Position numbers and translations under genes: made by a program
Source of the DNA: a virus
Taxonomy: Duplodnaviria; Caudoviricetes
IMG/VR virus record: IMGVR_UViG_3300037692_000179
Coordinates: 1-47,713 of that record
Strand: one strand, 5' to 3'
DNA: 47,713 nucleotides
The notes under the pieces: model-generated
What the model saw: the letters and a program-made list of their open reading frames with translations, nothing else
Told to the model about the DNA's origin: nothing
Databases searched by the model: none
Shown: piece after piece, positions 14,385 through 25,664 of the stretch
Numbering within the stretch: position 1 is the first letter of the stretch
Layout of the letters: every line of letters begins with the position of its first letter

Positions 14385-14954
14385 ATACCAGTAGTCTGCC
14401 ATGCCCAGCCGACTTGGGAGGCAAGGCCTCCGGAAAGGTAGGAGAAAATGGCAGACGTGAAACGGGCGAAGGTGACGTTGGACGATGAAAAGCTCGTGGT
14501 GGTGATTGAGGACGGGGGGAAGTCCAAGACCTACAGGCTGGATAAGGTGCCGGAAGGACTGCACGCGCGGTTTGCCCTACATGGGATGGCACAGAAACTT
14601 CGAGACGCAGTCGCCAGCAAGAGTGCCAAGGCGGGATATTCGGCTGGGGAAAGGTTCGAGGTGATGGATAAACTCTTCGAAGCCTTTTGCAAGGGGGAAT
14701 ATACCGTCCGAGGCGAAGGTGGCGGCGGTGGTGGGAGTCAGCTGGACGAGGCGGCTCGGAAGTTCCTGGCCGGGGAGCTCTCGGATGCGGAACAGAAGGT
14801 GTTGGATTCCGTTGGGCTTCTGGAGAAGATCAAAGCGCGGGCGCGGAAGTTGCAGGAAAAGGAACAGGAAGCCGCGCTGGAAGACGGAGAAGAAGAAGAA
14901 GAAGAAGAAAATAACTAACAAAAGCTTCGGCTGGGTGTGGCAGGCTACTGGTGT
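14385..14954 (+). promoter_or_regulatory. 28-bp inverted repeat (14385-14412 / 14927-14954) enclosing gene 14448-14918
   Basis: 24 Watson-Crick pairs plus 4 G-U wobbles on the + strand, with no true mismatches. Confidence 0.8.
14448..14918 (+). CDS. Early protein, paralogue of 22259-22690, with acidic tail
   Basis: AGGAG RBS; LHGMAQKLRDA...GEYTVR matches MHGAIQKLGDA...GNWTVR; poly-Glu C-terminus. Confidence 0.85.
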   Translation: MADVKRAKVTLDDEKLVVVIEDGGKSKTYRLDKVPEGLHARFALHGMAQKLRDAVASKSAKAGYSAGERFEVMDKLFEAFCKGEYTVRGEGGGGGGSQLDEAARKFLAGELSDAEQKVLDSVGLLEKIKARARKLQEKEQEAALEDGEEEEEEENN

Positions 14955-14997
14955 GGAAGACGGGAAAGACGCAGTCTTGAAGGAAAGGAGAAAAGAG

Positions 14998-15231
14998 ATG
15001 ACTGAAGTGGAAGTTTCGGCTGAGATGAGAGAGGTCGCCAAGCGGAAGATGGAACTGGAGAAAGAGCTATCGACCCTGGAGAAAAGGTTCCAGGAGTTGA
15101 AGGAGCTGAAGGTGAGGCTTTTCCAGAGGGTAGTCGTTGTCCCGGAAGGGGAGAGTGGGAAGAAAAGGGGTGGCCCAACGGGGCTGTCCCAGGTCCAGAA
15201 GGACGCCCTCCGGAAGCTCGGGCTGTTGTAG
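14998..15231 (+). CDS. Small coiled-coil hypothetical protein (77 aa)
   Basis: AAGGAG RBS; MTEVEVSAEM...QKDALRKLGLL. Confidence 0.7.
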   Translation: MTEVEVSAEMREVAKRKMELEKELSTLEKRFQELKELKVRLFQRVVVVPEGESGKKRGGPTGLSQVQKDALRKLGLL

Positions 15232-15272
15232 CCTGGGAGGGAAGGTTGCGGAACTGGGTCGAAGGGTGTGAT

Positions 15273-15754
15273 AGTTGTGTAAATGTGTATCGTGTATCGT
15301 GTGGCGTGTATCGTGTATCGTGTATCTTTCCGGTAAAAACCGGGTTTCAATGTGTGACACTTTGACTGCGTCTCTCCCATCCCAGTCTTTCCCATTCCCA
15401 GCTTCCCTTCCCACCCTACTGTATAGTTTTTTTTTTTTTTTTTTTTCTTATAAGGGAAGGGCAAAAACTGAGTGTCAAAATTTTGACGCGCTCGGAAAGT
15501 ACTAAGGGAAAGGTTCACACATTTGGATTCCCCAGTGAAAGCGTCAAACATTGACACTTTATCTGGGACATTGTCCTTCCAAGGCATTGTGTCAAACATC
15601 GTCTCTTTTCCTGGCCCGCGAAAACCCTGGGACGGGAAGTGTCCTTTCAGGGAAAGTGTCACACATTGGAAACGGGGATTATGGCAAAAGATACACGATA
15701 CAGGATACACGATACAGGATACAAATGCCACAAATGCCACGCATTTACGCAACT
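15273..15754. other. Putative replication origin / control region
   Basis: Inverted arms of about 90-100 bp (15273-15363, 15653-15754) containing 7-bp GATACAC repeats. T20 at 15427-15446, GTCAAA..TGAC sites, non-coding, at the skew switch. Confidence 0.6.
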
Positions 15755-22724: not shown

Positions 22725-22769
22725 GCTCCAGGGGTCACCAAGCATCTCTCCGGCCCCTGGAGCTTTTTT
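22725..22769 (+). terminator. Rho-independent terminator
   Basis: GCTCCAGGGG...CCCCTGGAGC-TTTTTT. Confidence 0.8.
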
Positions 22770-22830: not shown

Positions 22831-22962
22831 GCCTAACGACAAGCTAACGGGCTTGCGGCCCAGGAGGTAGACAGATGCAACCATGGCAAAAAGACCCGCT
22901 TGGAATTGACAAGTCAAAAACCACAGATGGGAGCAAGTCCGCCGTTGAGCGACTTGTTAAGC
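22831..22962 (-). repeat. attC site 1
   Basis: Minus strand reads GCTTAAC-aagtc-GCTCAACG...CGTTAGC-ttgtc-GTTAGGC, with the canonical extra base in L''. Confidence 0.85.
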
Positions 22963-23162
22963 CGCTGACCCCCTGCAATGCCCAATATTATGCGATTTTG
23001 CGCGAAGCCGATGGAAACGAGGAGAGTATTACCCTGGAGCAAAACTTGGAAGCCCCCTGGGGGGACCATTACCGCGTGGATGTGTCGCTGATGCGGTGGC
23101 GCACAAAAGATAAGCTTGCTGCCTATCTCCGGCAGATCGCTGCCGTGATTGAGGCGGCTTAA
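22875..23162 (+). CDS. Cassette 1 ORF (95 aa); starts inside attC1
   Basis: AGGAGG RBS and ATG lie within the attC loop; the TAA stop is in the next core site. Confidence 0.7.
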   Translation: MQPWQKDPLGIDKSKTTDGSKSAVERLVKPLTPCNAQYYAILREADGNEESITLEQNLEAPWGDHYRVDVSLMRWRTKDKLAAYLRQIAAVIEAA

Positions 23163-23324
23163 CAGCCACTGATAACCGGTGACGGAATACAGAAAGGGGA
23201 TTGACGAAATGATGCCAGATGAAATTTGCGATAGGTGTGACGTTGGGACTTGCGGCGAATGTCCGTATTACGGTGACCGGGCATGCACTGCCGGTTCGCC
23301 ATCCGCTGCACTGGATGGTTAGAT
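23157..23324 (-). repeat. attC site 2 (long, degenerate)
   Basis: GCTTAAC...CCGCTGCAC-tggatg-GTTAGAT; arms are imperfectly matched. Confidence 0.6.
23209..23322 (+). CDS. 37-aa Cys-rich peptide encoded wholly within attC2
   Basis: AAAGGGGA RBS; MMPDEICDRCDVGTCGECPYYGDRACTAGSPSAALDG; TAG stop lies in GTTAG. Confidence 0.5.
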   Translation: MMPDEICDRCDVGTCGECPYYGDRACTAGSPSAALDG

Positions 23325-23348
23325 GGATATTTTTCGACGGAGGGCCGA

Positions 23349-23582
23349 ATGGTTGTTTATCACGTATGTTCATACAAAAAATTGCAACGATACCTGAAAA
23401 CCGGATCAATAACGCCGCCAGTAAGGGCATGGGAAAATATCGAACAGGCCGAGCGAATGAGTAAAAGTACAGGACGTAGACTTATCTTGCGACTGAAATT
23501 TCCCAATAATGCTGAAAAGCTTGAAGGGCATTTCAATCAGGCTCGCGTGTTGCACCAACCTTACAAAATGGATGCCATATAA
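23349..23582 (+). CDS. Cassette 2 ORF (77 aa)
   Basis: GGAGG RBS; MVVYHVCS...; TAA in core site. Confidence 0.7.
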   Translation: MVVYHVCSYKKLQRYLKTGSITPPVRAWENIEQAERMSKSTGRRLILRLKFPNNAEKLEGHFNQARVLHQPYKMDAI

Positions 23583-23682
23583 CGAATAGCGATCAGTGGC
23601 GGCGACGGGACCGCCCAACGAGTGGGCACATTTCGACCTAGCACCCATGTATCACCCGTCCGGGTTCATGCTGGTGTTAGCA
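23577..23682 (-). repeat. attC site 3
   Basis: ATATAAC...GACGGG/CCCGTC...GTTAGCA. Confidence 0.65.
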
Positions 23683-23695
23683 CGGTGAGGCAACT

Positions 23696-24019
23696 ATGGA
23701 TTACTGGAGAGAGTGTATTGAGATTGCCCTTGATGAATGCGGACTGAATGCCACCGACGAGCAGGTAACGTATCTCGTTGATGCCGTCAAAGGTGGACAC
23801 GAAAATTACGGGATGGCCCACGGATACGATTGCGTCCCTGAGCCATCAGAAACTCAAGCCAAGCGCGAGTTGGCCGAGATGAAACGGCAGGCAAGGCAGC
23901 GCGAAGAGTGGAAGCTCTCTACGAAGCCGTGCCGAGCCTGCACAACCACCGGCAGTGTGCGCGATGTATGGGGCCGGGATATGACGTGCCCTGATTGTAA
24001 CGGCAAGGGCCGCGTTTGA
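23696..24019 (+). CDS. Cassette 3 ORF: C-terminal DnaJ-type CxxCxGxG zinc finger
   Basis: CRACTTTG...CPDCNGKG; GAGG RBS. Confidence 0.75.
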   Translation: MDYWRECIEIALDECGLNATDEQVTYLVDAVKGGHENYGMAHGYDCVPEPSETQAKRELAEMKRQARQREEWKLSTKPCRACTTTGSVRDVWGRDMTCPDCNGKGRV

Positions 24020-24020
24020 G

Positions 24021-24126
24021 TGCTAACGTATCTAGCTAAACGGCGACGGGACGACAACACCGTTTAGCAGACTGCTTTCGAGAACCCTCGCTGTATGTTT
24101 CGTCCAATTTCAGCGTTTTGTTATGA
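24021..24126 (-). repeat. attC site 4
   Basis: TGCTAAC..GCTAAACGG...CAATTTCAGC-gtttt-GTTATGA. Confidence 0.7.
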
Positions 24127-24139
24127 GGCATAATCACTT

Positions 24140-24334
24140 ATGGCCGAGGACTACGGGATTGAATATTATCTGAGTGCAGAAGACGAGAGATACCCAACGC
24201 TAGTTTTGCAGAGCGATGATTTTGGAGTTGTTGGGTATTCACTTGATAAATCTACAGGACATCTTCGCAGGGTGTGTATTTGCTCTGCCCATTCTGAGGC
24301 TGAATGCTGCTGCGGCGCATGGGATGCCTTATAA
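24140..24334 (+). CDS. Cassette 4 ORF (64 aa, Cys-rich C-terminus)
   Basis: CICSAHSEAECCCG; TAA in core site. Confidence 0.65.
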   Translation: MAEDYGIEYYLSAEDERYPTLVLQSDDFGVVGYSLDKSTGHLRRVCICSAHSEAECCCGAWDAL

Positions 24335-24413
24335 CGACCAAGATAACCGGCTGCGCTGTGCATCTGGTAAGACAGCGGCTGTTTAACCAGTCCGGTTGAT
24401 TTTATGGTTAGGA
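24329..24413 (-). repeat. attC site 5
   Basis: ATAACCGGCTG pairs with CAGtCCGGTTgAT, leaving the canonical extrahelical G and T on the + strand. Confidence 0.85.
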
Positions 24414-24421
24414 GCAAACAG

Positions 24422-24613
24422 ATGCAGATACCTGTGAACATAGCAAAACTAGCCATTAAAGAGACGCGCCACCCAGGATGCGCTGGGTACGCGATTGACA
24501 CACCGAACGGCACAGAATACGACTGCGCCTATGACACGGTGATAACCTGCGACGAATGCAAATACTGCGTTGGGAGAAAAGACCCTTCCGCAAAACGCAA
24601 CAAGGCACCCTAA
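24422..24613 (+). CDS. Cassette 5 ORF (63 aa, Cys-rich)
   Basis: AGGAG RBS overlaps the GTTAGGA core; CDECKYC; TAA in core site. Confidence 0.7.
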   Translation: MQIPVNIAKLAIKETRHPGCAGYAIDTPNGTEYDCAYDTVITCDECKYCVGRKDPSAKRNKAP

Positions 24614-24709
24614 CGACCCATGGTCTGCGGGCAGGGGCTTTTGATTCGCGTTGCTGCCATTTTCCTAGCCGCTGCCGAGGTGGGCTGTCCGCTAACCCGA
24701 TTGTTATCT
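24608..24709 (-). repeat. attC site 6
   Basis: CCCTAAC..GGTCTGCGGGCAG / CTGTCCGCTAACC..GTTATCT. Confidence 0.7.
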
Positions 24710-24720
24710 CTGGGGGTGCT

Positions 24721-25014
24721 ATGTTTATTGAGGAAATAAAATTATTAAAAGACAAAGCCTTCAGACTAGAAGAAAAAATCAAATTTCTGGAGGAAGTGGA
24801 ATATTGTCTTCGATACGCAGGGCTGACTGGTGTGGTACATGGTGATGCGTCACTAGAGGACTGGAGAGGGTTTGACTTTGATTTATATGAAAAAGAAGTT
24901 GGTTATCCGCTCCAGTTGAAATGGGATAGGAGGTGGATTGGGTTCCCAGAATTATCAGAATATGACCACATGAAAGACAAAATACTGCCGCAATTTTATG
25001 ATTTTAAGAGATAA
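24721..25014 (+). CDS. Cassette 6 ORF (97 aa, AT-rich)
   Basis: GGGGGTG RBS; MFIEEIKLL...; TAA in core site. Confidence 0.7.
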   Translation: MFIEEIKLLKDKAFRLEEKIKFLEEVEYCLRYAGLTGVVHGDASLEDWRGFDFDLYEKEVGYPLQLKWDRRWIGFPELSEYDHMKDKILPQFYDFKR

Positions 25015-25082
25015 CCAAAGAATATGCCGACAGTGCAAGATCTAAAAATAATAATTTGCGCGCTTGCAGCGGTTGGTTAAAT
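25009..25082 (-). repeat. attC site 7 (short; L boxes mismatched)
   Basis: AGATAAC...GCTTGCAGC-ggttg-GTTAAAT. Confidence 0.6.
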
Positions 25083-25096
25083 TACGGAGGTCGAAA

Positions 25097-25288
25097 ATGG
25101 GATTTTTGAGTCGGAGCATCAAAACAGCCGTGAAACTTCCCTTTGCCATGGCGTGGGACTGTATCAGCCTCGGCAATATGGGAGAGGGCACAAGCACAGG
25201 GAAAGTGATTGCGGAGCACCAAGCCGAAAAACAGATAGACGACTGTTTGGAAGTGGTGAAAAAGCTGAAAGATGCTGGAGTAATTTAA
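25097..25288 (+). CDS. Cassette 7 ORF (63 aa)
   Basis: GGAGG RBS; MGFLSRSIK...; TAA in core site. Confidence 0.7.
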   Translation: MGFLSRSIKTAVKLPFAMAWDCISLGNMGEGTSTGKVIAEHQAEKQIDDCLEVVKKLKDAGVI

Positions 25289-25386
25289 CGTCGCCGGTCA
25301 GCGGTTGCACTGAGACGACCGAGAAGCACGGACCTTTTCGGCCTAGCACCGCTGTTGAACAGTCCGCTGGAGTGGTCTTGTTATGT
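25283..25386 (-). repeat. attC site 8
   Basis: GTCAGCGGTTG / CAGtCCGCTGgAG with extrahelical bases; ends GTTATGT. Confidence 0.8.
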
Positions 25387-25565
25387 CAAACTGTGGAGAC
25401 TGTGAGCATATCGGAAAACACGCTTGGGGTTTGCTTCATAACGAAAAAAGCTGCCTCAAAATAAGAGAAAGACAATCTGATTTTGATAGAGGCGCTAAAA
25501 TGTCACGTGCAGAAGCAACTGACATTTTTAGATTCAGGCCCACTGATGGGGTTTTCCCCATTTAG
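25383..25565 (+). CDS. Cassette 8 ORF (60 aa; possibly frameshifted)
   Basis: ATG lies inside the GTTATG core; GGAG RBS in the L box; CGDC motif. Confidence 0.5.
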   Translation: MSNCGDCEHIGKHAWGLLHNEKSCLKIRERQSDFDRGAKMSRAEATDIFRFRPTDGVFPI

Positions 25566-25664
25566 CGATGTTGAAAAGTGTCGGTATTTTTCAAAGGCAT
25601 AACATAGGGGTACCATGCTCCACCAACCCCACAGTCCGCGACTTAAAAAGGAGGACGTAACCAA

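Follow-up and report, generated by a model that had tools for sequence, protein, structure and literature searches.

An inverted array of eight integron-type gene cassettes in a phage genome, likely shuffled by a host integron integrase

The locus and its features

The phage record IMGVR_UViG_3300037692_000179 comprises 47,713 bases, which together form the window analysed here, and represents a whole viral genome with completeness rated at 100%. It encodes terminase, portal, capsid, DNA polymerase, primase, ligase, exonuclease and a Sak4-like protein. Among its + strand DNA-metabolism genes lies an inverted array of eight integron-type cassettes, in which the open reading frames (ORFs) run against the polarity of their attC recombination sites, and which a host integron integrase, acting in trans, likely built and shuffled. 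The array consists of eight sites of the form xxxTAAC...GTTAxxx and a ninth core devoid of a hairpin at 25597-25603; the AAC and GTT cores, in inverted arrangement, are present in all eight sites. The first-pass annotation delimited the array at 22831..25386, which covers the eight sites and falls short of the ninth core. The sites and ORFs are as follows (RBS, ribosome-binding site; aa, amino acids; nt, nucleotides; bit scores and E-values of sites are from the covariance model described below).

22831..22962, top strand on -: attC site 1; 34.9 bits on minus and 4.0 on plus; its loop holds the RBS, the ATG and the first 28 codons of ORF1
22875..23162, +: ORF1, 95 aa; begins within site 1 and ends on the TAA of site 2
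23157..23324, -: attC-like site 2, 168 bp, with mismatched arms
23209-23322, +: mini-ORF of 37 codons in site 2; cysteine-rich, with a GGGG RBS-like run, ending on a TAG in the right core
23349..23582, +: ORF2, 77 aa; a widespread phage gene with 681 homologs
23577..23682, -: attC-like site 3, with mismatched arms; 7.6 bits, not significant
23696..24019, +: ORF3, 107 aa; phrog_22300, with a C-terminal CxxC...CxxC
24021..24126, -: attC site 4, with a 7-nt spacer in the left arm and competing local hairpins
24140..24334, +: ORF4, 64 aa; phrog_10039 (E 2e-5); ends on the TAA of site 5
24329..24413, -: attC site 5, the best-formed site, 51.7 bits; its right core overlaps the AGGAG of ORF5
24422..24613, +: ORF5, 63 aa; ends on the TAA of site 6; no family match
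24608..24709, -: attC site 6; 19.1 bits (E 0.036), no clear extrahelical base
24721..25014, +: ORF6, 97 aa; ends on the TAA of site 7
25009..25082, -: attC-like site 7, with an irregular left arm; weakest polarity call (log-odds -3.5) and no model match
25097..25288, +: ORF7, 63 aa; ends on the TAA of site 8
25283..25386, -: attC site 8; its right core holds the ATG of ORF8
25383..25565, +: ORF8, 60 aa; starts at the ATG in the right core of site 8
25597..25603, -: isolated ninth core that ends cassette 8 and, in three of four positions, complements the right core of site 8; GC skew is back to backbone values beyond it

The GC skew is positive from about 23.0 to 25.6 kb and negative on either side of the array; this marks the array as foreign to the phage backbone. 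Neither the integron-integrase family TIGR02249 nor the Pfam tyrosine recombinases (PF00589) had a match in the 47.7-kb genome. As regards attI and the integron promoter Pc, the locus offers the lone 7-bp core at 25597-25603 alone, and promoter and terminator scans returned matches at chance level. The ninth core is likely a remnant of the original target site, similar to an attG or attI. With at least two co-oriented attC sites close to each other in a genome without intI, the locus has the make-up of a cluster of attC sites lacking an integron integrase (CALIN), and it lacks the intI gene that defines a complete integron. Rfam had no matches in the window, and the array found no meaningful match among 50,697 phage records. 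When relatives of the locus were sought through its flanking genes, the exonuclease gave one weak match and the upstream gene none.

Polarity of the sites

An unpaired L-box base was located in the right arm of the + strand at sites 1, 4, 5 and 8, as the first-pass annotation had stated for sites 1, 5 and 8. The extrahelical base of an attC bottom strand lies opposite the AAC triplet (PMC5027507), and the same position in the right arm identifies + as the bottom strand. This assignment by folding is available for those four sites, and no clean L-box pairing was obtained at sites 2, 3, 6 and 7. Two models trained on bacterial sites extend it. A spacer profile, built on the five spacer bases beside each core, where positions are free of the search pattern, was correct in 178 of 178 leave-one-locus-out trials on bacterial sites, and it called the minus strand as the top strand in all eight array sites, with log-odds from -3.5 to -20.4. 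A covariance model (R1) was built on bacterial top strands preceded by an ORF in the same orientation, 53 of the 54 picked. It matched sites 5, 1, 8, 4 and 6 over their full length on minus (E 2e-9 to 0.036), gave weak minus scores for sites 2 and 3 and no match for site 7, and produced no significant match on plus in the window. The minus strand is therefore, as had been proposed, the canonical top strand, and no model placed a site in the opposite orientation. All five model matches with E < 1 in the 47.7 kb lie in the array, so its sites are not due to chance. Moreover, the core-constrained hairpin is stabler on + in seven of the eight sites, and the bottom-strand hairpin is reported to be the stabler one (PMC5027507).

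Several other signals were tried. The two strands could not be told apart by unconstrained folding or by strand skew, and core complementarity was dropped as a polarity test because both readings predict complementary cores.

Seven of the eight sites measure 74-132 bp and site 2 measures 168 bp, the length range reported for attC being 57-141 bp (PMC5027507). Sites 2, 3, 6 and 7 are probably decayed or hybrid. Arms of sites 2 and 3 pair better between the two sites than within each: left arm 2 reaches -9.6 kcal/mol with right arm 3 (-3.0 in its own site) and left arm 3 reaches -6.6 kcal/mol with right arm 2 (-2.4 in its own site), but left arm 3 also pairs with right arm 1 at -9.6. Judged from these sequences, cassette 2 may have entered through an exchange inside the site loops. 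In both site 4 and site 8 the arm complement occurs a second time inside the site, making a competing local hairpin that could damp recombination or act in the mRNA.

Cassette units, stops and leaders

Right cores match the left core of the following site in 28 of 32 positions and the left core of their own site in 14 of 32, one position in four being the invariant A. As a consequence, the stretch between two sites is expected to travel as a unit together with both cores, which are complementary across the cargo, as a circular form demands. A lone partner core follows cassette 8, and none was found within 1 kb upstream of site 1 (best 1/4); this placement fits units of the form C[attC]-ORF-TAA, the arrangement originally put forward, and such units measure 274-444 bp. 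ORFs 1, 2, 4, 5, 6 and 7 terminate exactly on the TAA of the next left core, just as had been noted, and ORF3 and ORF8 end 7 nt and 37 nt before the core, respectively. Every ORF thus lies on the bottom strand, not upstream of and co-oriented with its own attC as in a canonical cassette. This coding strand is supported by homologs or PHROG matches for ORF1, ORF2, ORF3 and ORF4, and none of the 13 minus-strand ORFs matched a PHROG. For ORF7 there is an Atlas lead only (unnamed, mostly viral clusters at 0.91). ORF5, ORF6 and ORF8 have no support by homology: no family match was found for ORF5, and ORF6 had no homolog besides itself. In cassette 8 a partial frame that begins at the core ATG overlaps a second one (25483-25602) that ends on the ninth core; the ORF8 gene may be broken or mis-sequenced.

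The sites also carry start signals, in agreement with the first-pass annotation for cassettes 1, 5 and 8. In cassette 1 both AGGAGG and the ATG lie within the site, ORF1 starting 81 nt ahead of the right core; the AGGAG of cassette 5 overlaps the core, and cassette 8 has its GGAG within the arm and its ATG within the core. One ORF1 homolog is 88% alike over the full length and another shares the attC-encoded leader only. A phage contig (L538) has the same site 1 in an inverted array, where homology stops at GTTA and a different cargo is fused in frame. Over the 28 shared leader codons, 12 of 18 differences fall on third positions (p 0.004), with 6 synonymous and 7 non-synonymous codons, which suggests, for this one sequence pair, selection on the leader peptide of site 1. 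In another phage, a site 81% alike to site 8 is combined with different cargo. The GTT is in frame with the ORF in five of the eight cassettes here and in 94 of 221 in the survey described below (p 0.004), a bias and not a rule.

Exchange points in related arrays

Pairs compared among 527 viral sites show where such units break. Pairs sharing the gene-start side only kept the site (at least 80% alike) in 15 of 41 cases, while those sharing the gene-end side only kept it in none of 14, and the junctions inspected break at AAC|. Eight viral pairs have the whole cargo in common; in three of them the cargo's own site is at least 93% alike and the other site at most 52%, and the reverse was seen in none. 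Finally, a perfectly complementary lone core lies gene-downstream at 84 of 121 array ends (control 13) and at the opposite array end in 31 of 110 (control 5). Both the breaks and the lone cores agree with the unit deduced from the array itself.

Viral and bacterial cassettes compared

The survey of orientation was based on one strand-specific pattern and covers one attC subfamily. For viral contigs three length classes were scanned, yielding 121, 130 and 27 stretches, with 38/64 and 16/64 parts covered in the first and second class; for bacterial genomes one class was scanned (137 stretches, 4/64 parts). Full flanks were available for the first 80 loci of each scan. At 185 viral pattern sites, ORFs of at least 60 aa ending on the core TAA (400-nt flank) lay on the bottom strand in 89 cases and on the top strand in 39, whereas the corresponding numbers at 111 bacterial sites were 14 and 44. 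Between two profile-detected sites, 311 viral cassettes comprised 123 inverted, 25 canonical and 98 ambiguous ones and 65 without an ORF; the 154 bacterial cassettes comprised 15 inverted, 90 canonical, 18 ambiguous and 31 without an ORF. Arrays such as L134, a bacterial tandem of about ten near-identical 296-bp cassettes, inflate counts per cassette, and clusters with overlapping loci merged were therefore counted. Of 120 viral clusters 80 were called, 65 as inverted and 11 as canonical with 4 ties, and of 49 bacterial clusters 41 were called, 3 as inverted and 37 as canonical with 1 tie; the contrast is strong (Fisher p 5e-17), to be read with the longest-ORF rule, the non-independent lineages and the partial scans in mind. 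The ambiguous viral group leans inverted: among its 98 cassettes a Shine-Dalgarno motif accompanies the bottom ORF in 84 and the top ORF in 10, and PHROG matches, for 40 of them, fall on 10 bottom ORFs and 1 top ORF. The inverted layout thus leads in viral clusters and the canonical one in bacterial clusters, and of the distinct phage-adapted class initially suggested the association with phages stands (65/80 against 3/41 clusters): the class is neither exclusive to phages nor universal in them.

Stops on the core are common among relatives as well. The core TAA serves as the stop in 102 of the 221 viral cassettes classed as inverted or ambiguous, and the AAC is in frame in 53 of the 56 that read on. 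In viral inverted cassettes, cores are complementary in 344 of 369.

The bacterial loci called inverted are of varied kind. One (L195) lies beside endolysin and spanin genes and is prophage-like, another (L207) resembles a shadow-ORF miscall, and a third (L146) is mixed. The last, at 258-2264 of a 2.8-kb contig of a Rhodanobacteraceae metagenome-assembled genome, combines one canonical 255-aa cassette with inverted ones at four co-oriented sites, and one cargo is 68% alike to that of a viral locus (L062); the array is possibly a leak of phage cassettes into a bacterial array.

Relation to known systems

The array is a variant of the CALIN and of the gene cassette, being neither a canonical cassette array nor a complete integron. 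With the canonical cassettes of class 1 and sedentary chromosomal integrons it shares the R''/L''...L'/R' boxes, an extrahelical base at sites 1, 4, 5 and 8, spacers of 5-6 nt, the tandem array and the cores complementary across the cargo. It differs in that each bottom-strand gene begins within its own site or behind it, that intI is missing and no clear attI or Pc was seen, that the array begins at the gene-distal end, and that the cargo consists of phage genes.

Phage attC clusters have already been published (Qi et al. 2023, PMC9892861), and sites from them recombined with IntI1, bottom strands performing better than top strands. These CALINs (TJE1, PH101, P12002L and MW202573) share with the present array several attC sites, the lack of intI, small phage-type cargo and the same site anatomy, whereas the array described here is longer (eight units), has six stops tied to the core and contains a translated leader within a site. 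The accessible text of that paper offers no analysis of gene-versus-site polarity and calls TJE1 and PH101 typical. On re-reading of the records, TJE1 has canonical polarity. In PH101 the bottom strands of attC1 and attC2, which outperformed their top strands in recombination (PMC9892861), lie on the strand of the annotated ORFs; these ORFs are hypothetical, with no stop on the core. The ORF strand likewise carries P12002L_attC1, whose 7-nt spacer resembles that of site 4, and all four covariance-model matches in MW202573 are inverted. Tested inverted phage sites therefore already exist, their polarity unremarked in the text accessible to us. A literature search, for which subscription journals were mostly outside the scope, found no paper on inverted phage cassettes as a class. 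In the PH101 record (L128, 25920-27990) the tested attC2 is present twice, each site being duplicated together with downstream sequence, and a further site-like hairpin occurs near 27380-27310.

Bacterial arrays are known to contain single reverse-oriented cassettes, for example toxin-antitoxin cassettes with their own promoter. In these, too, the gene is antisense to attC; unlike such isolated cassettes, every unit is inverted here, and the site supplies start or stop signals. IntI also inserts cassettes at genomic attG sites outside integrons (Loot et al., 10.1101/2022.09.11.507474). The double-stranded genomic target is a shared element, which the lone ninth core fits; in the accessible part of that work, insertion concerned the E. 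coli chromosome and canonical cassettes, with phage genomes and inverted cargo not included.

Proposed mechanism and alternative explanations

The anatomy of the array, the polarity features, the coding strand of four ORFs and the exchange point in relatives are observed, and a mechanism may be built on them. Each unit begins with the C of an AAC and extends to the AA of the following one, in the order C[attC]-leader-ORF-TAA, the boundary being shown by comparison of other phage arrays. By analogy with IntI chemistry and the PH101 sites, the coding strand is predicted to fold into a hairpin and to be cut at AA|C, the enzyme presumably being a host IntI that acts in trans on this folded strand. 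A cut just past the TAA stop, or in an in-frame AAC codon, would let an insertion or a loss spare the upstream gene, and the gene that comes with the incoming site would receive from it an RBS or a translated leader. A phage operon dense in genes would offer neutral targets of this kind, and this is the likely reason for the favoured polarity. The cassette genes would be expressed by read-through from the phage operon; the region may be called early from its position among DNA-metabolism genes. The alignment with phage transcription invoked in the first-pass annotation does not by itself explain the inversion, because ordinary cassettes, too, run with phage transcription once inserted in the reverse direction, and TJE1 is an example.

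A number of observations weigh against this interpretation. Four of the eight sites (2, 3, 6 and 7) are irregular, and in unconstrained folding the lowest-energy fold is the core-paired hairpin in site 7 only. P12002L_attC1 gave no verified recombinant (PMC9892861). TJE1 and 11 of 80 called viral clusters have the canonical layout, and 38 of 90 canonical bacterial cassettes likewise have their stop on a core TAA. No empty allele of the locus emerged from the flanking-gene searches or from the array search of 50,697 phage records, and a terminator-like hairpin (22748-22762) directly precedes the array, such hairpins being at chance level. In 26 of the 41 gene-start-side pairs the site is less than 80% alike, so site and gene are not a fixed pair. 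Likewise, sites 8 and 1 are found elsewhere with other cargo, from which it follows that exchange also takes place near the GTT core or through homologous recombination in the loop.

Part of this evidence would suit a once-mobile inverted array that is now largely a fossil, its sites persisting as translation signals or leaders with most of them no longer recombining. The irregular sites, the competing hairpins of sites 4 and 8, the possibly broken ORF8 and the genome without an integrase favour such decay, but cores that are still complementary across each cargo (28/32), the good scores of sites 1, 5 and 8 and the clean AAC| exchange points in relatives make it unlikely. A somewhat slimmer chance is given to flipped bacterial cassettes, in which top-strand recombination or an inversion between cores turned the gene against its site and selection in phages kept the result. 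Top-strand recombination with inverted insertion is known (PMC5027507), exchange points occur at the GTT core too, site 8 is 89% alike to a bacterial site over 37 nt, and the L146 array mixes one canonical cassette with inverted ones. Nevertheless, a top-strand insertion turns gene and site together and leaves their relative polarity the same, and the cargo that could be tested consists of phage genes without attC (ORF2, with a model match in 0/99 loci; ORF3 in L002), not of canonical bacterial cassettes. Least probable is a misread polarity, with plus functionally the top strand, crossover at the right-hand GTT by a different recombinase or with relaxed strand choice, and canonical ORF-then-attC units. 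At core level ORF-TAAC...GTT does look canonical, core complementarity is blind to the difference, and strand choice is not absolute (PMC5027507). This is countered by the spacer profile and the covariance model, both pointing to minus as the top strand, by the lone core, which would lie on the wrong side, by the site kept with the upstream gene in 0/14 pairs, and by ORF1, which starts inside the upstream site with a conserved leader. An inverted cassette array, likely shuffled by a host integrase in trans, accordingly remains by far the most probable interpretation.

Cargo genes and possible origin of the cassettes

Two cargo genes are also found without sites. ORF2 most likely starts at 23349 (77 aa), in line with its homologs, which are plain phage genes; since most of them have the same length, the left core of site 3 is the last codon and stop of the ORF2 gene itself. 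Of 111 ORF2-homolog loci fetched, none of 99 had a covariance-model match, although the model may miss AT-rich site types. A C directly follows the TAA stop in 4 of 90 distinct flanks, with no site detected in any. ORF3 is found free of any site in L002, and a complete 35.9-kb phage record (G002) with no integrase match carries it, as an inverted cassette, in a 12-site array (L539, 388-5179). As far as sequences can tell, both patterns fit capture of phage genes in place. Against such capture, no intermediate was seen among the ORF2 and ORF3 loci compared, and complementary cores would need later selection.

With these reservations, we tentatively consider that phage genomes could act as a factory of integron cassettes, an idea we rate as somewhat less than even. 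Host IntI would insert sites at the TAA|C stops and in-frame AAC codons of phage operons, and two insertions bracketing a phage gene would make an excisable cassette whose coding strand is necessarily the attC bottom strand. Units and attC leaders would then be traded through the host integrase, as a parallel pool that occasionally leaks into bacterial arrays.

Integrons have been seen as bacterial tools and, lately, as stores of anti-phage defence. If phages hold a cassette class of their own and shuffle accessory genes with the host integrase, phage mosaicism would have one more source. Within a bacterial integron, Pc would not express an inverted cassette, and the phage and bacterial pools could share sites and enzyme while their expression stays apart. 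The origin of cassettes has been described as largely unknown (PMC5371416); phage genes with and without sites that end at the same codon make cassette genesis testable.

Concerning the product of ORF2, its predicted structure (pLDDT 88) resembles CC0527 (TM 0.72, prob 0.99, E 0.2) and Tpt1 domains, and the Atlas lists an Arr-type ADP-ribosyltransferase cluster at 0.91; the fold search had no match at E <= 0.001. By this modelled resemblance to minimal ADP-ribosyltransferase/Tpt1-like domains, ORF2 is possibly a candidate for a minimal NAD-using phage enzyme family. Elsewhere in the genome, a G-rich stretch with repeated short motifs lies at 14577-15740, between the packaging and early modules, where the GC skew changes sign; it is possibly an origin or packaging region.

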